From positions 1-41,855 of the forward strand of contig CANRHO010000001.1 of NCBI GenBank assembly GCA_947630435.1: DNA of 41,855 bases, given 5' to 3'. The DNA comes from an uncultured Bacilli bacterium. Its GTDB lineage: Bacteria; Bacillota_I; Bacilli_A; RF39; UBA660. Below the pieces are notes generated by a model, which searched no databases, was not told where the DNA came from, and saw only the letters and a program-made list of their open reading frames with translations. Below are positions 7,824 to 39,192 of this stretch, one piece after another (positions within the stretch are counted from its first letter, which is position 1; every line of letters begins with the position of its first letter). Made by a program: the position numbers and the translations under genes.

Positions 7824-7844
7824 ATTGCAAAAAAAAAGACCATC

Positions 7845-8492: not shown

Positions 8493-8537
8493 GACATCAC
8501 ATCCTAATCAAATTATAACATATTACTTAGATAAGTA

Positions 8538-9599: not shown

Positions 9600-9635
9600 T
9601 AGTATCACCTATATAATTATAACATTTTAAAAAAG

Positions 9636-9659
9636 AAAAAAACCATTTTCATGGTTTTT
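9636..9659 (-). terminator. Rho-independent terminator of hup
   Basis: Minus strand AAAACCAT-GAAA-ATGGTTTT followed by a T-run, 7 nt after the hup stop. Confidence 0.75.
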
Positions 9660-9665
9660 CGATTA

Positions 9666-9938: not shown

Positions 9939-10051
9939 AATTAAAACCTCCATGTTTATGTTCATTTATAAGCTATCTTGCTTACAATATAAGCGTACCA
10001 TTTTTAAAAGAATAATTCAAGTATTTTAATCATAAAAATAACATTTTTTAC

Positions 10052-14953: not shown

Positions 14954-15385
14954 TTAACTCTTTTTAAATACAAATAATTTACTAAATAAATAATTAAATA
15001 TTATTATAAGTATTTGGCTGACAACCGTCCATATTAGTACCCAAATATCACTGTTTAATTTCAAAACCGTAACAAAAAACCACATTATAAGCATTTCCAT
15101 ACCAAGTGTTAATAATCTGGCAGCAAAAAAACTTAACATTTCCTTTAATATTTTCTTGCTTTTGCTTTTAAATACAAATATTCTATTTGTTACATATGCA
15201 AAAATAACGCCAGCAACCCAAGAAGTTATAACCGCAATTTGTAGTTCAAAAGCATCTTTAGCATTTAAAATAGTAAATAATAATCCCCATTTAACTGCTA
15301 AATTAACTATCGTGGTTAAAGCACCCACTACAAGATAATTTATGATTTCTTCATACTTTCTATATAATTTTAATATTTTTTTCAT
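14954..15385 (-). CDS. GtrA-family membrane protein (putative flippase for polyprenyl-phosphate-linked sugars)
   Basis: 143 aa with 4 TM helices. N-terminal ..INYLVVGALTTIVNLAVKWGL and a C-terminal FNYLFSKLFVFK are typical of the GtrA/PF04138 family. Confidence 0.8.
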   Translation of the reverse strand: MKKILKLYRKYEEIINYLVVGALTTIVNLAVKWGLLFTILNAKDAFELQIAVITSWVAGVIFAYVTNRIFVFKSKSKKILKEMLSFFAARLLTLGMEMLIMWFFVTVLKLNSDIWVLIWTVVSQILIIIFNYLFSKLFVFKKS

Positions 15386-15423: not shown

Positions 15424-16494
15424 TTAGTCATTTATTTTTAATTCTTCCTTTAGATGTTCAACGGTTCTTTTAAATCCTGATGAAATATCATATTTAGGCT
15501 CCCACGATAACTCATCCCTGATTTTTTTAGTAGATAAAATTCCATCTTTAAATGATGCAACTCCTTTTTGAGTTGTCTTTGGTATATCAAAAACAATTTT
15601 TAATTTTTTATCAGGTTCTAAATTTATTAAGGTTTCCGCAAGTTGTCTTATGGAAACTTTAGAATTTTCATCCGCAACATTATAAACCATATCGTTAGAT
15701 TTTAAAAGAATTAAAAACATTGCCTTAATAGCATCAGCAATATATGTGTATGTTCTAACTGAAGAACCATCACTTTTTAAAACAATGTCCTTATTATGCA
15801 AAACGTTATTTAGAAAATCAGCTTGCACACGTCCATCATAAATAGACATACCAGGTCCATAAGTATGAGCTAATCTTACGATTTTTGTATTTAAACCATA
15901 TTCTTCTTTAAAACCTACACACATATTTTCTGCAGCCTTCTTTCCTTCTGCATAGCCATTTCTAGGAATTAAAGGGTTTACCTGTCCTAATAAACCGTCC
16001 TCAGTAAATAATTCCTGCCCATTTATAGGTTCACCATATATCTCACGAGAAGATATAAATAGATATCCTTTAGCGCCTTTATTTTGAGCTAAAGAAAGAG
16101 TATTTGCGGTACCTATAGTATTAGCAAGGTTGGTTTCTACTGGTTGTTTTCCCATGATTTTTGGACTAGCAGGAGAAGCCGCATGAATTACATAATCTAC
16201 GTTACCCTCGACGCTAATTGGATTTATTACATTTGCAACAATTATTTCTACGCTATTATTATTCTTTACATATGAATCCAATTTATTAACATCTCTTACT
16301 AGTGCTTTTATTTTAGTATTAGTATTATAAAGTTCATTTAACTTTATAATAGTATAAACAAAATATGATCCTACCATTCCAGAAGCCCCTGTAATTAAAA
16401 CCGTTTTATCTTTTAATTTTTCTACTAATAATTTTGAAGTACAAAATTCAATTATATCTTTTACATCTTCATCTATTATTTTTGAATATTTCAT
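15424..16494 (-). CDS. Extended-SDR NAD(P)-dependent epimerase/dehydratase/reductase
   Basis: 356 aa. Rossmann motif VLITGASGMVGSY, catalytic YAEGK (YxxxK) and an SSREIYG serine. Resembles UDP-glucuronate decarboxylase/GalE-type enzymes. Substrate not determinable. Confidence 0.8.
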   Translation of the reverse strand: MKYSKIIDEDVKDIIEFCTSKLLVEKLKDKTVLITGASGMVGSYFVYTIIKLNELYNTNTKIKALVRDVNKLDSYVKNNNSVEIIVANVINPISVEGNVDYVIHAASPASPKIMGKQPVETNLANTIGTANTLSLAQNKGAKGYLFISSREIYGEPINGQELFTEDGLLGQVNPLIPRNGYAEGKKAAENMCVGFKEEYGLNTKIVRLAHTYGPGMSIYDGRVQADFLNNVLHNKDIVLKSDGSSVRTYTYIADAIKAMFLILLKSNDMVYNVADENSKVSIRQLAETLINLEPDKKLKIVFDIPKTTQKGVASFKDGILSTKKIRDELSWEPKYDISSGFKRTVEHLKEELKIND

Positions 16495-16506
16495 ATTTAC
16501 CTCACT

Positions 16507-17250
16507 TTAGTTACTATGATTTTGTTTTTTTAATTCTAACAACTGACTATAATCTATTGATGCGTAATTCCCTAATAGTGTACAGTAGTCTTCTGCCGTT
16601 GTAACTTTTATATTTCCTCTATTTCCATTAACTAAATGACAATTAATTCCGTTTTTAAACATTAAACCACAAGAATCAACTATACCCTCATATTTAGGAT
16701 TTGTTTTTCTTTCTTTTAAATGCATTTTATATATATCATCTAAATAAAAACATTGTGGAGCCTGAGCTGTATACATAATTTTTCGTTCGGGCATTTTTGT
16801 TACTTTAACCCCATCCATACTCATAACAGGAGTTTCAAAACATGGAGTAACAGTTATTGCGCTTCCATGACGTTCTACCGAATCAACACATTCATTAATC
16901 GTTTCTTTACTTACTAAAGGTCTTACACCATCATGAATTAATACAACTGCATTATCATAATCTTTTTTTACTTCACTTAACCCAATAAAAATCGAATCTT
17001 GACCTGTATCACCTCCAGGAAATACTCTTTTAACTTTTGTAATACCATACTTACTAACCAAAGACTCTAGATAATCAACATAATCTTTAACACACGCGAT
17101 ATATATATAGTCAATTTTTTCATTTGATTCAAATAATTCAAGCGTATGAACAATAATCTCCTTTCCTTGAACTTTCAAAAACTGTTTTGGAATCTCGGCA
17201 CCCATTCTTTGCCCAATTCCTCCGGCAAATATAATCGCAATCTTTTTCAT
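16507..17250 (-). CDS. tarI: IspD/TarI-family cytidylyltransferase (probable alditol-phosphate, e.g. ribitol-5-phosphate, cytidylyltransferase)
   Basis: Start set at ATG 17250 (GGAGGAAAATT RBS), giving MKKIAIIFAGGIGQRMG..IPKQF, the IspD-family signature. The track's 27-codon N-terminal extension is rejected. The gene symbol is by family analogy. Confidence 0.75.
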   Translation of the reverse strand: MKKIAIIFAGGIGQRMGAEIPKQFLKVQGKEIIVHTLELFESNEKIDYIYIACVKDYVDYLESLVSKYGITKVKRVFPGGDTGQDSIFIGLSEVKKDYDNAVVLIHDGVRPLVSKETINECVDSVERHGSAITVTPCFETPVMSMDGVKVTKMPERKIMYTAQAPQCFYLDDIYKMHLKERKTNPKYEGIVDSCGLMFKNGINCHLVNGNRGNIKVTTAEDYCTLLGNYASIDYSQLLELKKQNHSN

Positions 17251-17296
17251 AATTTTCCTCCATAATAGCGTTATATTATTCATATATCTTTTTATA

Positions 17297-17325
17297 ATTT
17301 TATCATAATAAATACTATTAATCAA
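17297..17325 (-). promoter_or_regulatory. Candidate internal promoter upstream of tarI
   Basis: Minus strand reads TTGATT (17325-17320), 17-nt spacer, TGA-TAAAAT (-10 at 17302-17297), within the 150-nt gap between the PF05704 gene and tarI. Confidence 0.4.
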
Positions 17326-17400
17326 ACTCAATACTATCTTTAAAACGTTTCGTGAATTTGATTAAATATATTTTTATACCTTATAAATAGGTACACTACA

Positions 17401-18276
17401 CTAATTTTTTTTCTTTTTATTACCTATAACAAAATCATAATTTGTAAAAACATCTTTTTTTATTTCAATAGACTTATTTAACTTGTGAAAATCAGACATT
17501 TTTTTAATTTGTTCAAATCTATTTTTATTGTATTTTTTTTCTAACTCAAATTGTAAGACATGAGGACTTATATTATTAAATACTGGTATTTTATCAAACT
17601 CTTCTTTATATTCATCACAAGCAATTGAAAAAGCCAAATGAAATAAAAAGTAATTAGATAATGCATTTTCCTTCTTCCAATACTCAAAAAGAAGTTTTTG
17701 TGTTGCAACTAATATAGGGTTATTTTTACATGAATTAATTAGCCAACTAGAAGATTTTATAGGCATTTTATCAACTCTATCAAGTGAAATTTCTTTATAA
17801 ACAAAAAGAGGCTCTTTAGTTATATATAATGGTTCACTATCCGCTGTACAAAACACCGTGGAATCAAGCCATAAACCGCCATGCTTTATTAATAAATTAG
17901 TTCTCAAAAGATCTGAAAAATGAGTCTTTGAAATAATACCTTTTTCGTATTTTTCAATAATATAATCAGGAAAATCAGTATATTTTTTGTAGTTATTCTC
18001 TGTTAAAATAACAATTTCTTTATTAGGCATGGTTTTTTTTACTGATTCCACGCATTTTTGAACTAAAACTGGTGCATTTTCTAAACCCTGAAACCAACAT
18101 ACAAAAATCTTGTTTGAAAATACTTTTTTATAATTACCATGATAAAAAGTATCAATAATATTTTGATAATCTTTTTTTAGCTTTATTTTTAAATTATGTT
18201 GTATTTCAATGTCTTTTGCTATTTTATTATTAATAAAATGATATTTAATATTACGAATCTTTCTTATTATATTCAC
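17401..18276 (-). CDS. Capsular polysaccharide synthesis protein family (PF05704-like, GT32-related glycosyltransferase)
   Basis: 291 aa. IFVCWFQGLENAPVLVQKCVESV...IVILTENNY...ISKTHFSDLLRTNLLIKHGGLWLDSTVF matches the Caps_synth family signature as I recall it. Confidence 0.7.
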   Translation of the reverse strand: MNIIRKIRNIKYHFINNKIAKDIEIQHNLKIKLKKDYQNIIDTFYHGNYKKVFSNKIFVCWFQGLENAPVLVQKCVESVKKTMPNKEIVILTENNYKKYTDFPDYIIEKYEKGIISKTHFSDLLRTNLLIKHGGLWLDSTVFCTADSEPLYITKEPLFVYKEISLDRVDKMPIKSSSWLINSCKNNPILVATQKLLFEYWKKENALSNYFLFHLAFSIACDEYKEEFDKIPVFNNISPHVLQFELEKKYNKNRFEQIKKMSDFHKLNKSIEIKKDVFTNYDFVIGNKKKKN

Positions 18277-19424
18277 CTTTTAAATACCTCCTTTAAAATG
18301 AATTTAGCAATGTCTTTGCTTGAATTTGGATTTTGGTTTAAACCAAGGTTTTTCATGTAATTATCCAAATCTTTATGGTAAGAATTAATGTTAAAGTTAA
18401 TAATATTGTCTTCAAGTTCTTTTTGTGTTTTTGCAAATGGAAATGGCATGTCTTTATAAGGTAAATTAAAATCTCGATTTTTTACGTATTCGTCATAATC
18501 ATTAGCATATATATAACACGTTTTTTTCATCATAGCAAAATCAAACATAGTAGATGAGTAATCCGTTATCATAACATCCGAAAAAACCTCTAGTTCATTC
18601 ATATCTTTAACAAATGATGCATTAATAATTTTTTCTGAATATTTAAAATAATCTGCTTTATTAGAAATATTAGGATGTAATTTAATTAAAGTCACCCACT
18701 CTTTTTTATCTTTTTTAGAAAGAACATCCATAATTTTATTAAAATCCAAATCATAGCAATCTAAATTTTCATCATCTCTAAAGGTTGGACAGTATAGTAA
18801 AATTTTCTTATCATTAGAAATATTAAATAGTTTTCTATACTTAGAACGTATTTTTTTATTATCTGATTTTTTTAAAAAAACGTCGTATTCTGGCCACCCT
18901 AATTCAATAAAATCTCCGTTATACCAAAAGCTTCTTTTAAAAACATCTTTTTGCCAGGTGCTGCTAGCTACCATATAATCAGTCATTGCTGCATCTTTTT
19001 GAGCATATTCTACATATTCCTTAGATAGTGAATTAATGGCGTCTTTTTCTACTTTTTTAGCACCAATACCACCATGCCATGCTTGAATATAAATTTGAGT
19101 TTTTCTTTTACGTGCAAAATAACATTTCCTAGAATTACCAATCCATAATTTAGCAGTAACATGCTCATAAATTGATCTAACCGAATTATATTTAACTTTT
19201 TTAACATAATTAGGCAAAGTAGCATCACCATATATATCATAACAAACCAAGCAAATTATTTTCAAAGACTTATCCATTTTATATAATTCATCAACAATAA
19301 GTTTTGGATTGCCAAGATATCCTTTTCCATTAAAGCAATCAACTACTATTTTCTTTTCATCAATTCTAAAGACGCGAAACAAATACCAACATATTTTTTT
19401 TATAAAAACTTTAATTTTTACCAT
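18273..19424 (-). CDS. CDP-glycerol/ribitol:poly(alditol phosphate) phosphotransferase family (TagB/TagF/TarL-like)
   Basis: 383 aa. YIQAWHGGIGAKK, LLYCPTFRD, IKLHPN and ITDYSSTMFDFA are Glyphos_transf (PF04464) motifs. 4-nt overlap with the downstream gene. Confidence 0.85.
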   Translation of the reverse strand: MVKIKVFIKKICWYLFRVFRIDEKKIVVDCFNGKGYLGNPKLIVDELYKMDKSLKIICLVCYDIYGDATLPNYVKKVKYNSVRSIYEHVTAKLWIGNSRKCYFARKRKTQIYIQAWHGGIGAKKVEKDAINSLSKEYVEYAQKDAAMTDYMVASSTWQKDVFKRSFWYNGDFIELGWPEYDVFLKKSDNKKIRSKYRKLFNISNDKKILLYCPTFRDDENLDCYDLDFNKIMDVLSKKDKKEWVTLIKLHPNISNKADYFKYSEKIINASFVKDMNELEVFSDVMITDYSSTMFDFAMMKKTCYIYANDYDEYVKNRDFNLPYKDMPFPFAKTQKELEDNIINFNINSYHKDLDNYMKNLGLNQNPNSSKDIAKFILKEVFKR

Positions 19425-21157: not shown

Positions 21158-22018
21158 TCAATATTTTTCATAACTATATTTAATACACTTATTATCAATA
21201 TAATTCAGTATCAATTGATTTGTTTTATCATCATAATGAAGCCCATCATAAGTTTCAAAATTAACATTGTTAAACGAATCACAACTATACATATTTATGC
21301 GTTTGTTATTTTCTAAAAGTTCATCTATTTTGCTATTAAAATCCATTATCTTATGGTTTCTAACTTCTGCCATAATATCATCATAAAGCTCTTTATTTTG
21401 AACAGGATTAACCGATAACAAGTAAAAATTAACATCGCTGTAATTATCAGCTAATTTTTTATATAAAGAAAAATATTCTACAACTCTATCTTCAATGTTA
21501 TCAACTACCCTCGTATCATTAACACCCATGTTAATAACCACATGGTATTTATGGTTTTTATTACGATTATCTAATTCTTGAATTAGTTTTGGATAAGCAA
21601 TATCTTTAAACCAAGTTATTGTAGCCCCACCTTTTGCAATAAAACTAAAATTATCTGGTATATTTAAGTCTTCCGCATCATTTTCAATAAATTCCATGCG
21701 GGAATCACCTATTACAATAACTTTGTTAGTTTTAATTAACGAAAAATCATTATTTTTATTAATTTTAGAAAAACAACCTTCCAAAGTAAATAAATTATCA
21801 GTAAAAATAATATTGAAAACACATATTAAAACAACCAAAAAAATTATAAAAGAAAATATGTTAAAAAATAATATAAACTTTTTGTTATTATTCTTGAAGA
21901 TGATAATGGTAACTAGTAAAATAAAGAAAATTAATATTATGCTTAACAATATATCTAAATTTTTATCACATAAACCTTTATATATTTTTATCAATATTTT
22001 CACCTCGGATCTTATCAA
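21158..22018 (-). CDS. Membrane-anchored SGNH/GDSL-family hydrolase or acyl-transfer domain protein
   Basis: 286 aa. Two N-terminal TM helices, then the SGNH blocks VIVIGDSR (I), AKGGAT (II), INMGVND (III) and DGLHYD (V). The start is uncertain: TTG 22018, or TTG 21994 after GAGGTG. Confidence 0.7.
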   Translation of the reverse strand: MIRSEVKILIKIYKGLCDKNLDILLSIILIFFILLVTIIIFKNNNKKFILFFNIFSFIIFLVVLICVFNIIFTDNLFTLEGCFSKINKNNDFSLIKTNKVIVIGDSRMEFIENDAEDLNIPDNFSFIAKGGATITWFKDIAYPKLIQELDNRNKNHKYHVVINMGVNDTRVVDNIEDRVVEYFSLYKKLADNYSDVNFYLLSVNPVQNKELYDDIMAEVRNHKIMDFNSKIDELLENNKRINMYSCDSFNNVNFETYDGLHYDDKTNQLILNYIDNKCIKYSYEKY

Positions 22019-23063: not shown

Positions 23064-25148
23064 TTAAAATGTTTTAGTTTTTCTTATTTTACAAAATAAC
23101 GCATCTATTCCCGGAATACTAGCAACGATTATAATAGGAACATAATGTACTAAATATCTTGCTGAAGATTCCCATAAAGAAAGAAATACAATCAATCCAA
23201 ATAATGCAATATAAACAACATTACAATCATTTGTTTTTTTTACAAACGCCGTAATAGCACTAACTACTATAGAAAAGTAAAGAAAAATAATTAATCCTGT
23301 ATCTTTTATATAGTAAATGGAAAAATATTTACCATCAGAACAAATGATTTCCTGTACTATATTTTTTTCCATAATTTTATTTTCAGATATGGTTCTACTA
23401 CCATGAAAAGTTCCATCTCCCCAAGTGAAAAGCGCTTTTCGATATAGAAAACTTATATATCCAGTAACTTTATAACTTTTCATTTTTTCTTTAATCTTTT
23501 TTATATGACCTTTAATCATATTCTCACGTGTTCCCAAGGAATATGTATAATTATACAATTTAGCATTATATACCCCAATATAATCTTTACCTTCCACATT
23601 TGATGGATATTCATATAACCCCATCATAATCCAATGACTATAAGGAAGTGCTCCAGTTTTTGTTGCTTTAAAAAAATCAATATGATTCTCAACCAACCTT
23701 AAGAAGGAAAAAGAACAAATCATTGTAAGTATAATAATACCCATTGTTTTTATATTTTGATTAAACTTAAATCTAAATAAAACATCAACTATGATAGCTA
23801 TAAGCATAATAACACAAGTAAACTTAATTTTAATTCCAATAACAGCTAAAATACCTATTAAAATGGATAAAAAAATTTTTTTACGATCATACTTCATATC
23901 TCTAATATAGACATAACAACATAAAATAGCTATGGGAATTGGTAACGCTAAAGTATCAGTATAAAATACTGGTAAATATAAATAAAAAGCAGAAGATAAT
24001 AATATTAAAATCATCGCACATAAGATATTTTTATTCCCAAATAATTTCTTAATTGTTAATATGGTTAAAATTGCTGAGATATCAACAACAATAAGATTCA
24101 AAACATGAGTTGCAACCAAAGAATATTTTAATAAATGAAAATAGTTTAAAATTTTAAATAAAATAGCTTCAATAACAAATAAATACTTGTTATTGGGAAA
24201 AGTGGAGAAATAATTATAATTTATTCCATCCATGTTTCCAATCGCAAAATTTTTTGCCGATTCATAAACAACCTTCCAATCCCATCCAGGATTGTTCTTG
24301 GCAAAATATAAAACAAGAATTTGTAAAATAATAAATATAATTCCTAAAATAGTATAAACAATAAATTTTTTCTTTTTATTACTATTGATATTATTAATTC
24401 CTAAATAAACAAGTGGAAACAACAAGAAAACTAATATAAAAGCAATAATGTTATTTTTTGTAGTTGCTACACTTAAAACGGTTTTATTATTAAAAATAAT
24501 TCCAATGATAAAAGAAGCAAAAACAAAAGTAAAAATTAGTAAAAAAATTCGAATCAAAATAGGCATTTTTTCATTTTTTATATTTTTCATATTTATTTTT
24601 TTTATATTATTTTTATTAACTAAATATGCTTCCTTTGCATATTCCAATGCCTGCCTATCGTTTTTTATGGAATCAGAATAAAAACGATTCATTTCTCTTT
24701 TAGGATATTCTTTTTTATACCGATTTACTTTTTCAATACCCATACAATTTTTAGATTTAAATTCACCAGTATGTTTGTCTACTTTTGTAGCAATAACATG
24801 AACATTTAATATTTTTTCTAATGGTTTTAATAAAAATTCTGGAGACGCTGAGATAATCAAATCAAATTTTTCTTTTTGTTTTAAATACCAAGGTTTTATT
24901 TTAAAGAGATTTTCCTTCCAAAAATCATCAACGTATTGATCAACATTATCTATTTTCTTTAAGAAAGAAAATGCTTTTTCCTTAAAATAAGTTTTATTTT
25001 TTATTTTAAATATGTAAAGTAAAAAAACCAATATTTGAACTGGTAAACATAATAAAATTCTTTTATTTCTTTTAAGGCAAAAGAAATAAAAATCTATACT
25101 AGAATCTCCATCATAAATGGTTTTATCAAAATCATAAGCGTTTATCAT
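23064..25148 (-). CDS. Fusion protein: N-terminal HAD-IB-like phosphatase domain + C-terminal GT-C-type (PMT_2/ArnT-like) polytopic glycosyltransferase
   Basis: 694 aa. Residues 1 to about 185 carry HAD motif I (YDFDKTIYDGDS), motif II (LIISASP) and motif IV-like (FYSDSIKND). The rest has about 11-12 TM helices with a loop NPGWDWKVVYESAKNF...YFSTFPNNKY, reminiscent of GT39/GT83-type enzymes. Confidence 0.65.
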   Translation of the reverse strand: MINAYDFDKTIYDGDSSIDFYFFCLKRNKRILLCLPVQILVFLLYIFKIKNKTYFKEKAFSFLKKIDNVDQYVDDFWKENLFKIKPWYLKQKEKFDLIISASPEFLLKPLEKILNVHVIATKVDKHTGEFKSKNCMGIEKVNRYKKEYPKREMNRFYSDSIKNDRQALEYAKEAYLVNKNNIKKINMKNIKNEKMPILIRIFLLIFTFVFASFIIGIIFNNKTVLSVATTKNNIIAFILVFLLFPLVYLGINNINSNKKKKFIVYTILGIIFIILQILVLYFAKNNPGWDWKVVYESAKNFAIGNMDGINYNYFSTFPNNKYLFVIEAILFKILNYFHLLKYSLVATHVLNLIVVDISAILTILTIKKLFGNKNILCAMILILLSSAFYLYLPVFYTDTLALPIPIAILCCYVYIRDMKYDRKKIFLSILIGILAVIGIKIKFTCVIMLIAIIVDVLFRFKFNQNIKTMGIIILTMICSFSFLRLVENHIDFFKATKTGALPYSHWIMMGLYEYPSNVEGKDYIGVYNAKLYNYTYSLGTRENMIKGHIKKIKEKMKSYKVTGYISFLYRKALFTWGDGTFHGSRTISENKIMEKNIVQEIICSDGKYFSIYYIKDTGLIIFLYFSIVVSAITAFVKKTNDCNVVYIALFGLIVFLSLWESSARYLVHYVPIIIVASIPGIDALFCKIRKTKTF

Positions 25149-25252
25149 AATAACTAAACTCCTAACAAATAAAGTTTTTATATATATATTATTTTAATAA
25201 AAATACTATAAAGAAAGTAAAAAGAAAATATAAACATGATTTATTTTTCTCA

Positions 25253-26281
25253 CTACAAATTAACAGATTTGATTTTCCCTAAAAAATTTAATTTTATTTT
25301 TATTATTATTTTTTCAATAAATAATAATAAAAATACAAAAATAGTTGTTATTACAACATTACTACAAAACATTATTACCAATTTAATTATTCCTGGTAAT
25401 GTAATTATATAAGGATAAAGATAGTAAATTAACGAACTACCAATACCTTGACAAAAATAATATACTAAGGCATTTGCACCAACAAAGCATAGAATATTTT
25501 TACCTTTAACTTTTATTTTATCTTTAAGATAAGTAGCAATAATAATTGAGTTCATTGCGTAAAATAGATAACTGATGTGTGAGATGCTTTTCGCGTCCTG
25601 TAAATTTAAGAAACCATAATTACTAAAATGCAATAAAATAAACGTAATGAAAACATTCGTAATAAGTATAGTTAAAAAGTGTTTTAATGATTTAAAATTA
25701 AAATCGTATAAATAATATCCTAAACAATATATTAGAGTATACATAATTATATGTGGTTGTATTATTAAGAAATTATTCTTATATAGACTCATCCCATATA
25801 AGATAAACAATAAAACTAAAACATATTTAAAATTATTCCTTGTTTTAAAATACTTATTGTATAAACATATAAGTAAATTACCAATAATTAAAACTTGAAA
25901 ATACATAAATATAAACCATAATGAACCATTTACAACAGGTAAAACGCTTACGTTGTCAAAATGAAAAAACATTGCTTTAATTACCGAATACACATCAAAG
26001 TTTTTAAAATCAACCAACAGTATTATTATAAAATATAAAACTAAAAACAATAACCATTTTCGCCAAAACTTAATTAACCCTTTTAATGATTTGAAAAAAT
26101 CTTTGTTTATATTAAAAGTCATTCCTGAAATAAATATAAAAAGAGGAACATCAATAATTAAGGACAATGATCTAAGCCATATAGGTACATAGGCTTCACC
26201 GCTCCAAAAACAAGTATGAATTAAAATAATCCATATAGCTGCAAAACCTCTTAGAAAATCTATAGTATTATCTCTTTTCAT
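25253..26281 (-). CDS. Acyltransferase-3 (AT3) family membrane O-acyltransferase
   Basis: 342 aa, about 10 TM helices. The N-terminal RDNTIDFLRGFAAIWIILIHT is the AT3/OafA-family signature. Confidence 0.85.
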   Translation of the reverse strand: MKRDNTIDFLRGFAAIWIILIHTCFWSGEAYVPIWLRSLSLIIDVPLFIFISGMTFNINKDFFKSLKGLIKFWRKWLLFLVLYFIIILLVDFKNFDVYSVIKAMFFHFDNVSVLPVVNGSLWFIFMYFQVLIIGNLLICLYNKYFKTRNNFKYVLVLLFILYGMSLYKNNFLIIQPHIIMYTLIYCLGYYLYDFNFKSLKHFLTILITNVFITFILLHFSNYGFLNLQDAKSISHISYLFYAMNSIIIATYLKDKIKVKGKNILCFVGANALVYYFCQGIGSSLIYYLYPYIITLPGIIKLVIMFCSNVVITTIFVFLLLFIEKIIIKIKLNFLGKIKSVNL

Positions 26282-26294
26282 TTTTACTCACCCC

Positions 26295-27800
26295 TTAATT
26301 TGAAAACTTAATAATTAAATAATCATCGATCATTTTTATTGAACCTTCATTTGGGTAAAATGGCATTTTTTGTACTTCATATTTAGAAGCAAATTCTTTA
26401 GCTGTTTTAGATTCAGTATCTTCTTTATCAACAATATTTATAGGATGACCCATATAATACTTTATAAAGCGATAATAATTTTTATGATAAGTAGTTGAAA
26501 ACGAACTAAATAATCCTACAGCCTCATAGTCAAAACCAGGTTGTTTTATAGCTAATGGTCCATTATTTAAACTTCCAATTATAACAACTGGTGTTTTACC
26601 AACTTCATATCCGTCAGTATTTTCAACTTTATATATAACACGATTCATCGTACTAATGGTAGCTTTTAATTCTAAATTCTTTTTTTCATATACTTGATTC
26701 GAATATACAATATTACAAAAAGCAATAATCATTAAAAACATATAAGCCGCTTTATTTAGCTTTGTTTTATCGCTAAGTAGTAAAATTATAAATACGTAGG
26801 TAATATTAATACCAAAAATCATAAGTTCATGGGTAACTCCTACGGTAATAAAATAGATAATATTTAAAATGAATGGTAGAATTAGGCATAGCAATAAGAT
26901 TAAGAAAAAATTTTGTTTTTTTAAATTTTTATTTTTAATTATTTTTATACAATTATAAATAGCAATTACAATTAAAACTATATTTAAAATCAAATATAAA
27001 GTTTTATGAAAAGTATGAGGTTTAAATAAGTATTCGAAATATTTTGAATACGTTTGTTTTATACCAAGAGTTAATGTACCTAGATTGCTGTAATTTAAAG
27101 CGTTGCTGATACTATTTGTAACATGACTTAAATTATAATTAAGAATACGTAATATTAATTTATTTAAAATTATATAAACTATTAAAGAGACTATAGTAAT
27201 TAACATACATTTAATCCCTTCTTTAAAAATTTCTTTTTTATTTTTATCATTACTTAAATCTTTTATTAACATACCAATATATAAACCAAGTGTAACACTT
27301 AAATATGCTGGATAAATCGCAAAAGTAATCAATAAAGTTATAATTGCTAAATATGATAATTTATTATTTTTTCTAATTAAATAAACTGATATTACATTTA
27401 AAAGTATACAAAATATATACATATCAGCATAATTTATATATGTAGCATTTAACAAAGTAATAGTTGAACAAGTACAAGTCAATAATGTAATAAGTAAAAT
27501 TAAAATTTTATCTTTTATCTCAAATAATTTGCAAATATAATATATAGTGAATATCATAAATATGGTTGATAAAACCCCAATGATGATAGGAGGATAGTAA
27601 GAACCCCTAAGAAAAGTCCAAACAGGAATTAAAAAACGCCCGATTCCTAGTGAATCACCATAATAACCAGCATGAAATATATTTAATGAATCATGCGAAT
27701 ATAAAATATTAAAATAACAAAAACCATGTGCAACAAACATAGTAATCGTGGTTACAATACCAATAAATTTTAATAATTTCATATCAAATAATTTTTTCAA
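26295..27800 (-). CDS. Polytopic membrane protein with extracytoplasmic C-terminal domain; candidate GT-C/GtrII-like glycosyltransferase
   Basis: 501 aa. About 11 TM helices followed by a roughly 130-aa soluble tail. An acidic/aromatic first loop (YSHDSLNIFHAGYYGDSLGIGRF). The start is 5 nt after the stop of the UbiA-family gene. Function is inferred from architecture and context only. Confidence 0.45.
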   Translation of the reverse strand: MKKLFDMKLLKFIGIVTTITMFVAHGFCYFNILYSHDSLNIFHAGYYGDSLGIGRFLIPVWTFLRGSYYPPIIIGVLSTIFMIFTIYYICKLFEIKDKILILLITLLTCTCSTITLLNATYINYADMYIFCILLNVISVYLIRKNNKLSYLAIITLLITFAIYPAYLSVTLGLYIGMLIKDLSNDKNKKEIFKEGIKCMLITIVSLIVYIILNKLILRILNYNLSHVTNSISNALNYSNLGTLTLGIKQTYSKYFEYLFKPHTFHKTLYLILNIVLIVIAIYNCIKIIKNKNLKKQNFFLILLLCLILPFILNIIYFITVGVTHELMIFGINITYVFIILLLSDKTKLNKAAYMFLMIIAFCNIVYSNQVYEKKNLELKATISTMNRVIYKVENTDGYEVGKTPVVIIGSLNNGPLAIKQPGFDYEAVGLFSSFSTTYHKNYYRFIKYYMGHPINIVDKEDTESKTAKEFASKYEVQKMPFYPNEGSIKMIDDYLIIKFSN

Positions 27801-27805
27801 TTAAA

Positions 27806-28651
27806 TCACCTCACATATATCAAACAACTCAAAATCAAAGCATAAATAATTCCTAAGAAAATCAAAACTTTATCATTTAAAATTACTTCAATAGGATCAC
27901 CATAACTATTTTCCTCAATATTCATAGAATATCTCATAGTCATAATCATGACTATCGGTACGGTCCATACTAATAAGTTATTATTTATATCAACTGTCCA
28001 AAGCGAGTAAAAAACGATAGTGCAAGCTAAAAACATATACATATTCTTATCCAAAAAATTCTTATTATAATATCTCAAAACATATCTTGAATTACTGCCA
28101 TTTTTTTGAATTTCATTACGCCTTTTGCCTAAACTTAAGTAAAATGAGATTGACAAAACTGTTAAAATAAGCCAACTAGACAAAACTATGTTCAAACAAA
28201 ACCCACCATATAAGATTCTAATAACAAAACCAGAAACTAATATAACTATATCTAATAATGGAATATTTTTAAGACCAAAGCTGTAACCAATGTTTAAAAT
28301 AAAGTATAAAAATAGCAAAAGTGTTCCATAATTAAATAATAAATTAGAACTATATAACAGTATTAATGTTACAAAAAATAACAATATAGCTAAAGTAATT
28401 CCTTCTTTAACAGAGACTAATCCACTAGCAATAGGTCTATTTTTCTTTGTAGGGTGTTTTCTATCCTTTTCTTTATCATTTATATCATTAACAATGTAAA
28501 TAATACTAGAAGTAAGTGAAAAAGCTACAAACATTATTAAAAGTTTAAATAGTATATTTTCATTAAAGATAACACCAGCAAAAAAAGCTGGAAATAATAT
28601 TAAAATATTTTTTAGATAGTGATTTATTCGCATCAGTTTTAGGTATTTCAT
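27806..28651 (-). CDS. UbiA-family prenyltransferase, polyprenyl-phosphate 5-phosphoribosyltransferase-like (DPPR-synthase/Rv3806c-like)
   Basis: 281 aa, about 8 TM helices. N-terminal LMRINHYLKN..ILFPAFFAG, a first Asp-rich motif IVNDINDKEKDRKHPTKKNRPIASG, and a second region LGKRRNEI. Size and motifs match the short UbiA clade usually annotated as decaprenyl-phosphate phosphoribosyltransferase. Confidence 0.65.
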   Translation of the reverse strand: MKYLKLMRINHYLKNILILFPAFFAGVIFNENILFKLLIMFVAFSLTSSIIYIVNDINDKEKDRKHPTKKNRPIASGLVSVKEGITLAILLFFVTLILLYSSNLLFNYGTLLLFLYFILNIGYSFGLKNIPLLDIVILVSGFVIRILYGGFCLNIVLSSWLILTVLSISFYLSLGKRRNEIQKNGSNSRYVLRYYNKNFLDKNMYMFLACTIVFYSLWTVDINNNLLVWTVPIVMIMTMRYSMNIEENSYGDPIEVILNDKVLIFLGIIYALILSCLIYVR

Positions 28652-30324
28652 TTTTGCACCTCATACTCTATTTTTTCAATATACAATTCTTTGTTTTTAT
28701 TAAGTTTTTTAACTATTTTATAGTCGATTTTATAATCTATTAGATTATATAATGAACCTGTAAAATGTTCATTATATAATTTTATATTTAATTTTTTTCC
28801 ATAATTCTTTTCTAAATTCATTCTACTTTGTCCACTTACTGGAAGTTTATTTAGAAACATTATTTTCGTAGTATAATAAACATTACTCAAGCATAATATT
28901 AATAAAATAACACCTAAAATAGCTAAGAATCTCTTGTTTTTAAGTAATATAAATACAGCCATTATAGGAATAAAATAAGCTTGTGGATAATATCTTGCCC
29001 ACCAACTTTCCCCGATGACAAACATAAATAAAATTATAATTATAAATGGAATTCCTAGCATAATTAAATCGTCATATTCTTTTTTTATTATCAAAATTGC
29101 AAAATAAATAATTATTAGTAGTAACGAAATAATTAATAATCCACTGAAGTAAATTCCAAACCCACCTATTCGCGTATCTTCTGATATTTGCATTTGCTCA
29201 TAGTAAGTTTTAACGAACGGTTTTTTTAATTTGGGCTCACCATTATTAAATTTTCCGATGTTGGCACTATAACTAAATATCGAATAGAAATTCTTGCTGA
29301 TTGGACTTTTTTTATCAAAAGAAGCGGGTTGCATATCAGTCATTATATCTCTTTTATCTTTGCCAATAAGTGGATACAATGGATTATGATGCACTACTAT
29401 ATTTCTAACATAAGAATTGCTACCAACTATAAATAAGCTAATTATTAAAATTAATATAAATTTTAAAGTAAAATGTAATATGTCTTTATACTTTTTATCT
29501 TTTATTTTCTTTATTATGTAAATAATATAATAACCTAAACAAAATATTCCAGCATAAAGTAATCCCGTAAATTTAAGGTTAATAATTATAATTAGTAAAC
29601 AACCAATAGTAAAGAAGTATTCTTTATTTTCGTTTTTAATTAAAAGATACATATAAATTATTACCAGTAAAAGAATGAATCCAAGAAAACCATCTAAATA
29701 CAAAGATAGTATTTGTTGCCAAATAATTGGCAAAGTACATGCAGCGACAGCTGTTAAAATAGATAATAATTTATTCTTATAATATTTGTTTATTATATAA
29801 GCAATTATAAAAAACGTAATAAATAATATAATTAAATTAAATACTTTAGCTGTTTCAATATTATTTGTTATCTTGTAAATAGAGGCTCCAATAATCCAAG
29901 TTGCCTTAGGATAATTTTCTATCCATATAGTATGCCCAACATCATAATTTATCTTTTTGCCAAAATTTTTAGCACTACTATAGATAGGATTCCAACCGTT
30001 TTTAAGCAAGCCAATAGCTTCTTTATGATAAGCGTTACCATCGTAGGAGGTATCTAAAACTCTACCACATAAAGTTATAGATAATACAAAAATAACTAAA
30101 ACCAAAAAACCAGAAATTAAAATATTCTTATAATTTTCCTTGCATATAAAGTATAATTCTATTAACGCTAAAATAAATGAAATAGGTAGGTGAAAATAAC
30201 TAATAGAAACATTACATAAATATAAAACTGAAGTAATTACTAAAACATTTGCAATGGTAAATAGCATTAACAATGAAGTATTATAAAATATTTTCAAAGT
30301 TTTATTAAACATGGTCAGTTTCAC
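28648..30324 (-). CDS. Large polytopic membrane protein of unknown family; candidate GT-C-type transferase or polymerase
   Basis: 558 aa, about 13 TM helices. Conserved-looking loop LDTSYDGNAYHKEAIGLLKNGWNPIY. The stop overlaps the UbiA-gene start (ATGA at 28648-28651), implying translational coupling. Confidence 0.4.
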   Translation of the reverse strand: MKLTMFNKTLKIFYNTSLLMLFTIANVLVITSVLYLCNVSISYFHLPISFILALIELYFICKENYKNILISGFLVLVIFVLSITLCGRVLDTSYDGNAYHKEAIGLLKNGWNPIYSSAKNFGKKINYDVGHTIWIENYPKATWIIGASIYKITNNIETAKVFNLIILFITFFIIAYIINKYYKNKLLSILTAVAACTLPIIWQQILSLYLDGFLGFILLLVIIYMYLLIKNENKEYFFTIGCLLIIIINLKFTGLLYAGIFCLGYYIIYIIKKIKDKKYKDILHFTLKFILILIISLFIVGSNSYVRNIVVHHNPLYPLIGKDKRDIMTDMQPASFDKKSPISKNFYSIFSYSANIGKFNNGEPKLKKPFVKTYYEQMQISEDTRIGGFGIYFSGLLIISLLLIIIYFAILIIKKEYDDLIMLGIPFIIIILFMFVIGESWWARYYPQAYFIPIMAVFILLKNKRFLAILGVILLILCLSNVYYTTKIMFLNKLPVSGQSRMNLEKNYGKKLNIKLYNEHFTGSLYNLIDYKIDYKIVKKLNKNKELYIEKIEYEVQK

Positions 30325-36068: not shown

Positions 36069-38216
36069 CTAATTTTTGTTATGAAATAAATTTTTAATAA
36101 TTATACCTTCTATTAATAAAGTAAATAACATTAATAATATATACTGTAACTTAGATAAATATGTTCCACTATATTCATAATAGACTTTCATGCTTAAATC
36201 ACTTTTAACTTTCTTATTATTAACTAATAAATCTCCATCATATTGACTATTTCCCCTAGATAATCTGTATCCCCAACCTATTGAATTGCTATCATCATCC
36301 ATGGAAGATATAACAATCCAGTACTTTTGCTTTTTAACGGGATTTTGCTCATCTAATTTTAAATTGACTAATCCATCATTTGATATGTCTTTAGAAGTAA
36401 TTATAAAAGATTTAACCTGTTTATTTTTTGTATATACTCTAACGTCATATTTCGCGCTTGAGTCGTTATATTTTATAGCTGCTAAAGATATGTTATTAAA
36501 TTTTCCATTTGCATAAAATTCTTGTTCGATTATTTTTTTATTAATAGATAAATCATCTAAATATATATTATATTGGGGATAAATATTATTTACTTGATAA
36601 ACATGATACGTGGAAATTTTAGTAACATAACCTTGGTAAAGAAAAGCAAAGGAAATAATCGTAAACAAAACAAATACCAAAGCAACATTTTTTCCTAATT
36701 TTTTCTTTTGCACATCTAACTTCTTATTAGAAATTTTATCTAAAATATATGCTCCTAAAATAATCATAAAAGAAATAAATGGTAAACTATAATCAGTTTT
36801 ACTTTCCCAAATTGCATAGAAAAATATTAATCCTAATATTGAAATAGTAAAAAATATTCTATAATCAATTTTTTTAAATCTTAATTGATCAATTAAACAT
36901 GCTAACACTAATAAATATAAAAACATCCTAAAAGCATAACAATAAATATTTACAAAATCACTTTTTTCTCCATTTATAAATTGATATAATTTACTTTCTT
37001 TTTGAAGGTTTGTAATTCTAAAACTATAATTTTCAGAAAATGATGCAGGAATCTTAACTATAAAGTGATTTACTAATCCACTAATACCATATTCTTTTAT
37101 GGTTTTCTTAATTTCATCAACATTAGCTCTTACTTTTTCTTCTTTACTATCAAAACCATAAGTAAAATAATTTAAATTCTCATCTAATATTCCATTACCT
37201 TTTATTCCTATCATTAACCAGTGGGTAACTGGAAAATTTTTGGAATTATCAGGATAAAACTTTTTAATATTATAATTTATCACTTCAAAGCAAATAATTG
37301 ACGTGAACAAAAACACCGTGATAGCCATTAATAATTTTTTATAGTTTATTTTAATAAACTGACTTACCTTTTGTTTATGTAACATTACATAAATAATAAA
37401 TGTTACAAATATGGCTATTAATGGTATTATCATGGTAGCTCTAAGCATAAATCCAGTAACTGATATAATACTAAATATAATTACATAAAGCATAAATTTT
37501 AAATTAATGGTATTACATTCTTTCATTAATAAAATTAGATATATTGAAGAAATTACAAACACCCAACTAAAAGTATTAGTATAAGTCCAAAATATATAAA
37601 AATAATTTAATGGATTTAATACGCATAAAACTAAAGTTTTTAAAGCAAAATCATTACCTTTTAATTTTTGTGCAACTTTATAAGTGAAAAAAATAGACAA
37701 ATCAATTAAAATTATATTGCATATAGTTAAATAAGTTGTATTACCTGCTAAACCAAATAAATTAAAAAATTTAGTAATCAAAATTACCATTAATGTAAAA
37801 AAGTTATTATTTGAGTATATTTCCCAATAATATGTAGAATTATAATCGACTATTTTATCAAAACCAAAAGCAATTGCTCTTGCCTGATTAGTCGTTATAA
37901 ATGAATCTGTAACTTGAATAGGATGTATATCTGTTAACAGAATTATTTGAGACACAATCAAAAATAATATTAGTCCATATTTTAGTATTCTCTTCTTTTT
38001 ATCATCCCATTTATTTATATTTTTATAAATAACAATAATAAATAAAAATATTAAAGTGGCAACACCCCAATATATATATTCTGGATATTTAACAAGAGAA
38101 TTTAAGTATTTTGACATATCTGTGTACATTAATGAATTATATGTTATTAATATTAATAACAGTAATGTAATAACAATTATTACATTACTTGCAATTTTCG
38201 AAATTTTTTTCATCAT
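36069..38216 (-). CDS. GT-C-type polytopic glycosyltransferase with C-terminal extracytoplasmic domain (partner of the upstream GtrB-like enzyme)
   Basis: About 715 aa from ATG 38216 (GGAAGGAA RBS). About 13 TM helices. An Asp-containing first loop (HPIQVTDSFITTNQARA) and a roughly 190-aa soluble C-terminus. Directly downstream of a polyprenyl-phosphate glycosyltransferase gene. Confidence 0.6.
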   Translation of the reverse strand: MMKKISKIASNVIIVITLLLLILITYNSLMYTDMSKYLNSLVKYPEYIYWGVATLIFLFIIVIYKNINKWDDKKKRILKYGLILFLIVSQIILLTDIHPIQVTDSFITTNQARAIAFGFDKIVDYNSTYYWEIYSNNNFFTLMVILITKFFNLFGLAGNTTYLTICNIILIDLSIFFTYKVAQKLKGNDFALKTLVLCVLNPLNYFYIFWTYTNTFSWVFVISSIYLILLMKECNTINLKFMLYVIIFSIISVTGFMLRATMIIPLIAIFVTFIIYVMLHKQKVSQFIKINYKKLLMAITVFLFTSIICFEVINYNIKKFYPDNSKNFPVTHWLMIGIKGNGILDENLNYFTYGFDSKEEKVRANVDEIKKTIKEYGISGLVNHFIVKIPASFSENYSFRITNLQKESKLYQFINGEKSDFVNIYCYAFRMFLYLLVLACLIDQLRFKKIDYRIFFTISILGLIFFYAIWESKTDYSLPFISFMIILGAYILDKISNKKLDVQKKKLGKNVALVFVLFTIISFAFLYQGYVTKISTYHVYQVNNIYPQYNIYLDDLSINKKIIEQEFYANGKFNNISLAAIKYNDSSAKYDVRVYTKNKQVKSFIITSKDISNDGLVNLKLDEQNPVKKQKYWIVISSMDDDSNSIGWGYRLSRGNSQYDGDLLVNNKKVKSDLSMKVYYEYSGTYLSKLQYILLMLFTLLIEGIIIKNLFHNKN

Positions 38217-38229
38217 AATTCCTTCCGTT

Positions 38230-39192
38230 TTATTTATCTTTATCCTTGTTTTTAATAATTTTTTCAACGTTATATCTAGGTCTTTCCTTAACTTCTATAT
38301 ATGTCTTTCCGACATACTGACCTATTATACCAATGCATAAAAGTTGAACTCCACCCAAAAACCAAATCGAGCAGAAAAGTGAACTCCAACCGTCAAAGCT
38401 ACGCCCCATAAAATATCCTAAAACACCATATAGCATAGCAATAATGCTTACAACTATAATTACTATGCCTAACATGCAAATAATCGTCATTGGTTTAATA
38501 CTAAATGAGGTTATACCATCAAAAGCAAACTTTATCATTTTTTTAAGTGGATATTTACTTTCTCCTGCAATTCTTTTGCCACGAGCATAATATACACAAT
38601 CTGTTTTATATCCAATTAAAGGTACTATACCTCTTAAAAATAAATTTCTTTCTTTATATTCCGAAAGATCTTTCATAGCTCTTTTACTCATAAGTCTAAA
38701 ATCAGCATGATTATAAACTGATTTAACACCCATTAGTTTCATAAATTTATAAAATGATTGTGCGGTAAATCTTTTAAAGAAACTATCACTTTTTCTATCA
38801 TTACGAACTCCATAAACAATATCTATTCCGGATGTATATTTATCTATCATTTCTTCGATTACATTTATATCATCTTGTAGATCAGCATCAATTGAAATAG
38901 ACATATCAACTAAATCTAAAGATTCTGTAATACCCGCTAATAAAGCGTTTTGATGACCAACATTACCAGCTAATTTTAGTCCATAAACAAATTTGTTTTT
39001 TTTATTTTCCTCATGTATTAATTGCCAAGTATTATCTTTACTTCCATCATCTACAAACAATATAAAACTATTTTTTGCAATTTTTCTTTTTTTTATTAAA
39101 TCTTTTAAAAGATTTGTTAGTTTTCCAGAGGAAAAACTAAATATTTCTTCTTCATTATAACATGGTACAATAATTGCTAACCTATTTTTCAT
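38230..39192 (-). CDS. GtrB/CsbB/ArnC-type GT2: polyprenyl-phosphate glycosyltransferase
   Basis: 320 aa. LAIIVPCYNEEE, FVDDGSKDNT, SIDADLQDD, and two C-terminal TM helices ending GIIGQYVGKTYIEVKERPRY. This is the classic GtrB-family architecture. Confidence 0.88.
   Translation of the reverse strand: MKNRLAIIVPCYNEEEIFSFSSGKLTNLLKDLIKKRKIAKNSFILFVDDGSKDNTWQLIHEENKKNKFVYGLKLAGNVGHQNALLAGITESLDLVDMSISIDADLQDDINVIEEMIDKYTSGIDIVYGVRNDRKSDSFFKRFTAQSFYKFMKLMGVKSVYNHADFRLMSKRAMKDLSEYKERNLFLRGIVPLIGYKTDCVYYARGKRIAGESKYPLKKMIKFAFDGITSFSIKPMTIICMLGIVIIVVSIIAMLYGVLGYFMGRSFDGWSSLFCSIWFLGGVQLLCIGIIGQYVGKTYIEVKERPRYNVEKIIKNKDKDK

Follow-up and report, generated by a model that had tools for sequence, protein, structure and literature searches.

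The 41,855-nt stretch of DNA analysed here (the window, a single contig from an uncultured Bacilli bacterium) carries on its minus strand, at positions 23064-30324, a block of genes that is likely to be the Firmicute version of a three-component extracytoplasmic pentofuranose glycosylation system. Systems of this type are represented by the Citrobacter youngae O1/O2 loci, in which ORF15 joins a phosphoribose 5-phosphatase (PRP) to a polyprenyl-phosphate 5-phosphoribosyltransferase (PPPRS), ORF14 is the flippase, and ORF12 is the GT-C glycosyltransferase that founded family GT136 (Kelly et al., PNAS 2024, PMC11127046); the chemistry has been demonstrated experimentally for ORF15 and ORF12 (PMC11127046). 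In the window, PPPRS, PRP and GT-C are encoded together in a glycan locus, the combination that marks a three-component pentofuranose system: their genes share a 7.3-kb stretch of one strand, in the midst of a cluster of Wzx, Wzy and glycosyltransferase (GT) genes. The phosphatase, a HAD domain, is fused to a GT-C (HAD::GT-C), an arrangement that is an architectural variant of an established concept and not a new pathway or principle.

In the scheme that we propose, a UbiA-type synthase would convert phosphoribosyl pyrophosphate (PRPP) and polyprenyl phosphate to polyprenyl-P-ribose-5-P at the cytoplasmic face of the membrane, as its strong homology suggests, with undecaprenyl phosphate presumably serving as the lipid carrier. 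The HAD domain of the fusion would then strip the 5-phosphate to give polyprenyl-P-ribofuranose, a step to which its motifs, genetic linkage and fusion partners point, and a protein of the GtrA family would most likely flip the lipid-linked sugar to the outer face. Outside the membrane, GT-Cs are predicted to attach the pentofuranose to the Wzx/Wzy-type polysaccharide specified by the surrounding genes; the candidate transferases are a 558-aa polytopic protein, the GT-C domain of the 694-aa fusion and possibly a 501-aa GtrII protein. Since the window encodes no DprE1/DprE2 pair, the sugar is most likely ribofuranose (Ribf), an assignment that we make with moderate confidence.

All four open reading frames (ORFs) described in an earlier, sequence-only reading of this DNA are present on the minus strand, and the junctions and motifs that it gave for them can be found in the sequence. 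The stop codon TGA of the 558-aa GT-C gene and the start codon ATG of the UbiA gene share a single ATGA, and a GAGGTG Shine-Dalgarno sequence lies 6 nt upstream of the UbiA start (28651-28648). The UbiA stop ends at 27806 and is followed by TTTAA and then by the TTG start of the 501-aa ORF at 27800, which is preceded by a GAGGTGA ribosome-binding site; the 5-nt spacing claimed for these two genes is thus accurate. The HAD::GT-C ORF, placed by the same reading about 2.7 kb downstream, starts at 25148, 2,658 nt past the UbiA stop; the gap before it measures 104 nt and contains an AGGAG site. The motif VNDINDKEKDRKHPTKKNRPIASG occurs in the UbiA protein, and YDFDKT, IISASP and YSDSIKND occur in the 694-aa protein. 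Translation of the 558-aa ORF could also begin at an ATG four codons downstream of its GTG (30312), giving 554 aa, the start used by a public copy (P0121). Between the 501-aa and fusion genes lies an Acyl_transf_3 gene that the sequence-only reading did not mention. Homologues of this gene are found no more than 500 bp from UbiA at 5 of the 80 loci introduced below and also in loci L003, L088, L090 and L091; the product of the window gene is probably a glycan O-acyltransferase, accessory to the system and outside the sugar-donor pathway. A scan for promoters and terminators gave counts at background and was uninformative on operon boundaries.

Table 1. Features of the pentofuranose module and of its surroundings in the window
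Feature	Position	Strand	Remarks
558-aa polytopic GT-C-fold glycosyltransferase, candidate pentofuranosyltransferase	28648-30324	-	GTG start; translationally coupled to the synthase gene
ATGA shared by the stop of the 558-aa GT-C gene and the start of the UbiA-type synthase gene	28648-28651	-	
281-aa polyprenyl-phosphate 5-phosphoribosyltransferase (PPPRS; Rv3806c clade, UbiA superfamily)	27806-28651	-	
501-aa GtrII-family polytopic glycosyltransferase	26295-27800	-	TTG start, 5 nt after the synthase gene
342-aa Acyl_transf_3 membrane acyltransferase	25253-26281	-	Pfam PF01757 2.7e-16
N-terminal HAD-IB phosphatase domain, residues 1-190 of the 694-aa fusion	24579-25148	-	
C-terminal GT-C-fold membrane domain, residues ~196-694 of the fusion, candidate pentofuranosyltransferase	23064-24563	-	
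143-aa GtrA-family protein, candidate flippase	14954-15385	-	~7.7 kb downstream of the fusion gene
Glycopolymer cluster	14954-39192		several GT2, one GT4, O-antigen-ligase/Wzy-like, PssD/PssE (Alg14/Alg13-like), Wzx-like flippase; further, TagF-like glycerophosphotransferase, GT32, IspD-type cytidylyltransferase, extended SDR, GDSL-like protein, GtrA protein
Truncated SpoIVA gene	40621-41805		

On profile scores and alignment, the synthase falls in the Rv3806c-type phosphoribosyltransferase clade of the UbiA superfamily, as had been supposed from the sequence alone. It matches Pfam UbiA (2.4e-24) and scores 206, 183 and 164 bits against the three NCBIfam models for decaprenyl-phosphate phosphoribosyltransferase (DPPRS; best E 8.8e-61), versus at most 45 bits against each of the NCBIfam models for quinone, haem, chlorophyll and ether-lipid prenyltransferases; proteins 59-62% identical to it are named decaprenyl-phosphate phosphoribosyltransferase by NCBI. 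Among all solved structures, only Mycobacterium tuberculosis Rv3806c (PDB 8j8j) matches the synthase, with an E of 4.3e-37 over 268 residues. A quinone or haem prenyltransferase identity is rejected on the DPPRS scores and this sole structural match.

The residues of Rv3806c that contact PRPP and Mg (R22, K28, Y70, N73, D77, K87, R90, Q135, Y138, K143, Y157 and K208; PMC10994848) were transferred to the synthase via its alignment with the Rv3806c structure. Nine of the 12 are identical (R8, K14, Y52, N55, D59, K69, R72, Y123 and K128) and two are conservatively replaced (Q135 by N120, and Y157 by F142, the latter a change that occurs in some mycobacteria too); the remaining contact differs, K208 being replaced by Y190, beside the invariant R189. 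The aligned positions of the synthase are all invariant among 17 homologues. The synthase also has the Mg/pyrophosphate motif NDxxDxxxD. Because the phosphoribose contacts of Rv3806c are not conserved in ordinary UbiA enzymes (PMC10994848), their retention here is specific evidence for PRPP as the substrate of the synthase.

At least 572 species-level genomes carry the synthase, and gene neighbourhoods were sampled at 80 loci listed out of these. The 80 come mostly from Firmicutes, many of them gut metagenome-assembled genomes (MAGs), and include the cultured Clostridium puniceum and Solibacillus. In the species-level genome collection, the closest relative of the window is a rabbit-gut MAG, "uncultured Bacilli bacterium Lapin-012 bin34", with a UbiA identity of 79%. 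A search of a phage collection gave one unannotated match, at 33%, and did not recover the phage example of Kelly et al., a locus noted for its separate PRP (PMC11127046).

The HAD domain of the 694-aa fusion is predicted to be the PRP, based on its motifs, its linkage to the synthase and its fusion patterns. It matches Pfam HAD (3.9e-12) and the HAD-IB models TIGR01490 and TIGR01488, and the active site that had been claimed for it is complete: D6, D8, T10, S100, K140, D159 and D164 are all kept, and 90% or more of 60 aligned homologues share each of them. Of the 80 loci, 50 have a homologue of the domain no further than 3 kb from UbiA, and in 38 of these the distance is at most 500 bp, which makes it the commonest neighbour by far; in the window itself the distance is 2.7 kb. 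Near UbiA, the domain is carried by stand-alone proteins (about 24, of ~187 aa), by HAD::GtrA fusions (about 24, of ~325 aa) and by a few proteins in which it is fused to large polytopic partners. The HAD::GtrA fusions (for example at 10873-11853 of L078) join the phosphatase to the putative flippase. The same type of HAD is also fused to the 558-aa family (L057 and L090), to the 694-aa family and, in P0114, to UbiA; the match of P0114 to the HAD::UbiA model NF006088 is full-length, and the HAD of P0114 is 52% identical to that of the window over the aligned stretch. The occurrence of this HAD alone or fused to GtrA, UbiA, the 558-aa family or the 694-aa family is a Rosetta-stone pattern that ties the parts to one pathway. 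A search of 1.84 billion representative proteins placed 196 clusters in the HAD subfamily at an E of 1e-30 or better; in the best 150 of these the HAD is N-terminal in nearly all, and about 21 carry at least 560 residues, which puts the recurrence of the HAD::GT-C fusion at about 21 of these 150. The window domain has no signal peptide and is separated from the first membrane helix (197-220) by a lysine-rich linker, KKINMKNIKNEK, read directly from the translated ORF, and for these reasons we infer it to be cytoplasmic, where the phosphorylated lipid intermediate would be made.

Structure prediction with AlphaFold2, followed by Foldseek as had been proposed, matched the products of 23064-25148 and 28648-30324 to GT-C enzymes, and not to transporters or Wzy proteins, identities that are rejected on fold. 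The model of the 694-aa protein (predicted local distance difference test, pLDDT, 88; predicted template-modelling score, pTM, 0.75) matched AglB/STT3, ALG12, ALG3, Pmt4 and ArnT, every match at a probability of 0.98 or above being a GT-C, and the protein scores 105 bits against TIGR03766, which is under the cut-off. Its invariant residues among 22 homologues are D290 (in WDW), D398-T399 (in YTDT), H505-W506, W576-x-D578-G and E660. Homologues of its GT-C domain carry precomputed matches to PF27792 ("CHIM_prot"; for example P0001 and P0096, and in L003 and L089) and to PF13231 (PMT_2); the window domain is without a Pfam match because PF27792, a very recent accession, is absent from the Pfam copy that was scanned.

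The 558-aa protein, for which there is no Pfam family, was modelled with a pLDDT of 92.7 and a pTM of 0.93, and its top Foldseek matches were AftA (8if8, the best), ArnT, PglB, EmbA/B and ALG9, with probabilities of about 1.0. Its invariant motifs are D95-G-N-x-Y-H-K, Y209-x-D211-G and WWARY; among 30 homologues D95 is invariant and D91 nearly so. From the order of helices, D95 of this protein and D290 of the 694-aa protein would each be an acidic residue in the first large extracytoplasmic loop. Homologues of the 558-aa protein number more than 489, and HAD, or GtrA plus HAD, is joined to some of them; members of the family adjoin UbiA in 19-21 of the 80 loci, as well as in L088, L091 and L093. 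By profile alignment (hhalign probability 93.8%, E 1.8e-7), the cores of the 558-aa and 694-aa families are homologous. In BLAST, neither GT-C resembles the candidate GT-C from the Rhizobium locus (Kelly et al., Fig. S12). For the 501-aa protein the assignment comes from Pfam only, which places it in PF14264 Glucos_trans_II (GtrII; 2.1e-40, residues 27-342). The statement that neither unassigned polytopic protein fits a family that can be named therefore stands for the 558-aa protein and falls for the 501-aa protein.

Related loci combine these parts in different ways. In L088, genes for the 558-family, UbiA and HAD::GT-C are contiguous; in L091, the 558-family and UbiA are accompanied by Acyl_transf_3; and in L090, the HAD is on the 558-family protein, with a PF27792 protein standing alone beside it, right after UbiA. 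The HAD is on the PF27792/PMT_2-like protein in the window and on the 558-family protein in L090, and it thus swaps between two GT-C families. A JGI metagenome locus (3300029305; L093, 5001-9691) has a 558-family GT-C, UbiA, HAD, PRPP synthetase and GtrA in one cassette. This is the single case in which a PRPP synthetase was seen near UbiA; none was found in the 80 loci or in the window. The HAD::GT-C fusions, and the HAD::GtrA fusions of other genomes, could also be read as physical channelling, in which a single polypeptide matures the donor inside and consumes it outside, with the GT-C perhaps translocating it, and in which three GT-Cs build an oligo- or poly-pentofuranosyl "ribofuranan" in place of a one-sugar side chain; we regard this as improbable, although, if true, such channelling or an arabinan-like "ribofuranan" could be widespread in gut Firmicutes.

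The GtrA protein (Pfam GtrA_DPMS_TM 1.5e-21), which the sequence-only reading did not mention, is the sole candidate in the window for a polyprenyl-P-monosaccharide flippase, and its gene is probably part of the pentofuranose system. Of the 80 loci, 30 carry a GtrA-like domain no more than 5 kb from UbiA, 24 of these as HAD::GtrA fusions.

Several points weigh against the pentofuranose system proposed here. The whole scheme is computational, and the analysis covers one 41.9-kb contig of the genome. The synthase scores 205.6 bits against NF008978, the model for decaprenyl-phosphate phosphoribosyltransferase, 1.4 bits short of the equivalog cut-off of 207. The Foldseek matches of both GT-C candidates are weak, with a best E of 4.9e-3 and TM-scores of 0.3-0.46 for the 694-aa protein and an E of 1.6e-3 and a TM-score of about 0.4 for the 558-aa protein; over the two proteins the E-values extend to about 1e-1. 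A PF27792-family member (L089) and a 558-family member (L092) occur without a nearby UbiA, the former beside GT2 genes. The GtrA gene, ~7.7 kb away, may serve a neighbouring hexose system instead, and epimerisation of the lipid-linked sugar by an extended short-chain dehydrogenase/reductase (SDR; 15424-16494) is conceivable in principle.

The donor used by each of the three polytopic transferases bears on how the block is to be divided. The GtrII gene starts 5 nt past the UbiA stop, GtrII-family genes adjoin UbiA in 4 of the 80 related loci, and two or three large polytopic genes stand beside UbiA in 25 of the 80; HAD fusions occur in the 694-aa as well as the 558-aa family, which links these two to the pentose pathway. 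All of this speaks against the possibility that the pentose donor serves a single one of the three transferases and that the block is a mix of two decoration systems, with the GtrII protein, and possibly another, using a polyprenyl-P-hexose made by a GT2 encoded at 38230-39192 (minus strand). We consider such a mixture doubtful, while giving it more credit than any other alternative. The founding GtrII is a glucosyltransferase that uses undecaprenyl-phosphate glucose (Und-P-Glc) in the Shigella Gtr systems, which favours a hexose donor for the 501-aa protein. The GT2, absent from the sequence-only reading, is PgfS/ArnC-like (216 bits to PgfS and 136 bits to ArnC, full-length), and its gene overlaps by 38 nt that of a 732-aa polytopic protein (36069-38267, minus strand), whose N-terminal 400 residues resemble the TIGR03766 GT-C family and which has no Pfam match. 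As judged from these homologies, 36069-39192 encodes a second, hexose-type lipid-linked sugar decoration system (GtrB/ArnC-like GT2 plus GT-C), and the donor of each GT-C in the window is therefore uncertain; the finding of PF27792-family GT-Cs next to GT2 genes where UbiA is absent, and the single GtrA of the window, also fit a mixture of systems.

A second alternative retains the proposed pathway with another sugar, the polyprenyl-P-ribofuranose being epimerised before export, either to xylofuranose (Xylf) via an ORF13-like SDR, for which the enzyme encoded at 15424-16494 is the candidate, or to arabinofuranose (Araf) via DprE1/DprE2 encoded elsewhere in the genome. In C. youngae O2, a GalE-like SDR makes the Xylf donor (PMC11127046); the extended-SDR gene of the window adjoins the GtrA gene; the Rhizobium candidate locus has two SDRs and a GMC oxidoreductase; and the search for an epimerase extended over the one contig. 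Yet the best solved-structure matches of the SDR, the only one in the window, are UDP-glucuronate decarboxylases (9e-39), its similarity to the Rhizobium SDRs is generic (24-26% identity), and its homologues lie within 3 kb of UbiA in just 1 of the 80 loci. The SDR gene follows those for a TagF-like protein and an IspD-type cytidylyltransferase, so that a role in nucleotide-sugar or polyol metabolism is likelier than epimerisation of a lipid-linked sugar, and on these comparisons a function as an ORF13-like epimerase is not supported. With regard to Araf, no DprE1-like FAD oxidase (FAD_binding or ALO-type domain) was found in any window ORF scanned with Pfam, in agreement with the sequence-only reading. 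We think it unlikely that the pentose is epimerised. The window also has no PAP2-type phosphatase domain, the HAD being present instead; for comparison, PAP2 adjoins the synthase in a Rhodococcus locus.

For the HAD domain, the assignment as PRP has to be weighed against a regulatory or vestigial role, or action on another phosphorylated substrate, with an unlinked enzyme as the 5-phosphatase. The nearest relative of the fusion (66% identity; L003/L004 of Lapin-012 bin34, CANQNL010000026.1, with the gene at 13553-15544 of L003 in the same synteny as in the window) has an inactivated HAD, with D6N, T10I, S102V, D159N and D164K and an internal deletion, so that the domain is dispensable or replaced there; this 16.7-kb contig shows no further HAD gene. 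The window HAD gave no match to NF006088, no matches in a PDB sequence search, and no significant direct BLAST match to the proteobacterial HAD::UbiA of Rhizobium (E 0.26); its homology to the characterised PRP domain of C. youngae ORF15 (PRK08238/NF006088-type HAD::UbiA) accordingly depends on the P0114 bridge. Other fusion partners of this HAD type include YfhO-like, DUF6080-like, GDSL/SGNH, metallophosphatase and Glycos_transf_4 domains; of these, the GDSL/SGNH, metallophosphatase and Glycos_transf_4 fusions would fit a different substrate, and the D18A PRP mutant of C. youngae retained partial function (PMC11127046). All of these points count against a linked 5-phosphatase. They are outweighed, in our view, by the intact catalytic motifs in the window and in about 90% of homologues, by the standing of the domain as the most consistent neighbour of the synthase, by the HAD::UbiA fusion P0114 and by the N-terminal position of the domain in nearly all of the best 150 clusters, and a HAD without a role in the pathway seems to us very unlikely. 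Finally, that the synthase is an ordinary aromatic, quinone or haem prenyltransferase amid unrelated neighbours is scarcely credible, its superfamily membership and slight shortfall at the DPPRS equivalog cut-off being set against the large gap in score to every other UbiA class, the sole PDB match to Rv3806c, the kept phosphoribose-specific contacts and a glycan cluster context with a HAD partner.

The pathway type to which we assign the block is already known, from the 2024 work on Citrobacter and in that the NCBI pipeline labels Firmicute UbiA homologues as decaprenyl-phosphate phosphoribosyltransferase. The sequence-only reading regarded such a pathway as not characterised in endospore-forming Firmicutes. 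This holds for experiments, in that our search of the literature found no experimental work on the pathway in Firmicutes and no Firmicute glycan linked to such a cassette; it does not hold for prediction, since candidate Gram-positive loci have been reported, with Bacillus sp. NP157 as an elaborate example that has several GT-Cs or epimerases (PMC11127046). In the searchable literature we found no description of a phosphatase::GT-C fusion, of the equally common HAD::GtrA fusion, or of how widely the cassette is spread among Firmicutes. Should the prediction be right, Firmicutes would commonly decorate wall or capsular polysaccharides with pentofuranose drawn from a PRPP-derived lipid donor, and decorations of this kind shape phage receptors, immune recognition and serotype diversity. 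To find the pathway in Firmicutes, the HAD domain, whether stand-alone or fused to GtrA or a GT-C, would serve better as a genomic marker than the ORF15-type fusion employed to date. The pattern of HAD fusions flags two uncharacterised GT-C families, the 558-aa family (no Pfam model) and the PF27792/PMT_2-like family, as candidate pentofuranosyltransferases, and gives testable predictions for many gut Firmicutes.

The module is embedded in a single large glycopolymer cluster: the minus strand holds nearly all genes from 39192 down to 14954, and the G+C content is low, at ~24% across the cluster. The truncated SpoIVA gene (Table 1) identifies the source organism as a spore-former. Within the cluster, at 15424-19424 (minus strand), genes for a TagF/TarF-like glycerophosphotransferase and a GT32 lie upstream of the IspD-type gene, which is followed by that for the extended SDR; the IspD-type protein scores 157 bits against a ribitol-5-P cytidylyltransferase model, slightly below the cut-off, and this group of genes suggests a polyol-phosphate or an unusual CDP-sugar substituent on the same polymer. 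A membrane-anchored GDSL/SGNH-like protein (21158-22018, minus strand; weak Pfam match, 2.8e-4) may form, together with the Acyl_transf_3 protein, a split OafA-type O-acetyltransferase. Directly after the glycan cluster, an 812-aa protein (12491-14929, minus strand) has about 10 ricin-type beta-trefoil lectin repeats and a C-terminal GH25 lysozyme domain, and a ricin-repeat protein that resembles it is encoded next to the 558-family gene in L092. Further along (10052-12014, minus strand), a sortase gene overlaps that of a 480-aa protein in which thioester (TED) and SpaA/prealbumin-like domains are recognised, and the two look like a pilin- or adhesin-like pair of surface proteins.

Of the known systems, the closest to the module is the three-component system of C. 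youngae, and not the mycobacterial pathway with which the sequence-only reading had compared it, even though the homology that it saw between the synthase and Rv3806c is borne out. On the functions predicted for the window proteins, the window and C. youngae share a UbiA-type PPPRS that uses PRPP, a HAD-family 5-phosphatase, a GT-C that acts outside on the finished polysaccharide, and the absence of DprE1/DprE2 where the sugar is Ribf; in systems of the C. youngae type, an optional ORF13 SDR gives Xylf, or DprE1/E2 gives Araf (PMC11127046). They differ in that the HAD is fused to the synthase in C. youngae and to a GT-C in the window; that the flippase is of the MATE type in C. youngae, whereas the window candidate is of the GtrA type and non-adjacent; that three polytopic transferases flank the window synthase; and that the acceptor is O antigen in C. 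youngae, whereas the window host is Gram-positive and the acceptor would hence be a wall or capsular polymer.

With the mycobacterial decaprenyl-phospho-arabinose pathway (Rv3806c, Rv3807c, DprE1/DprE2, Rv3789 and Emb/Aft) the module shares a homologous synthase in which the PRPP site is kept, a lipid-linked pentofuranose donor (predicted for the module), GT-Cs (AftA being the top structural match of the 558-aa protein) and a GtrA-family protein in the cluster, like Rv3789. The mycobacterial phosphatase, in contrast, is of the PAP2 type and that of the window of the HAD type; the mycobacterial pathway has DprE1/DprE2 and the window has neither; the lipid is C50 in mycobacteria and presumably C55 in the window; and the mycobacterial role is arabinan polymerisation, whereas that predicted for the window is decoration of a Wzx/Wzy polymer. 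The GtrA-GtrB-GtrC (GtrII) systems for O-antigen glucosylation in Shigella and Salmonella, and the Gram-positive three-component hexose systems, resemble the window in their lipid-P monosaccharide donor, GtrA-type flippase and outward polytopic GT, as well as in the GtrII member (501 aa) and the pair of GtrB/ArnC-like GT2 and GT-C; their donor synthase is a GT2 that uses a UDP-sugar, whereas the module has a UbiA-type PRPP enzyme and a phosphatase. In the D-arabinofuranosylation of pilin in Pseudomonas aeruginosa PA7/Pa5196 (PsPA7_6246-6249 plus TfpW), a non-actinobacterial PPPRS homologue likewise feeds a GT-C; that system needs DprE1/E2 homologues, has a protein (pilin) as its target and lacks a HAD::GT-C fusion.

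A further comparison is with plasmid pF27D of Lactococcus cremoris (L084, NZ_CP068515.2), on which, at 7596-10715, genes for a hypothetical membrane protein, DPPRS, HAD-IB and GtrA lie in a Wzx/Wzy exopolysaccharide (EPS) cluster on which our literature search found no paper. On annotation, this is a Firmicute cassette comparable to that of the window, with a membrane protein, a DPPRS (48% identity), a GtrA and a HAD-IB that shares 52% identity with the HAD domain of the window. The HAD-IB of pF27D stands alone, between the annotated DPPRS and the GtrA gene, the locus is plasmid-borne, and its single candidate transferase is unrelated by BLAST to the window GT-Cs. This EPS plasmid of dairy Lactococcus is mobilisable, its host strain is cultured and tractable, and the gene content predicts an EPS decorated with pentofuranose.

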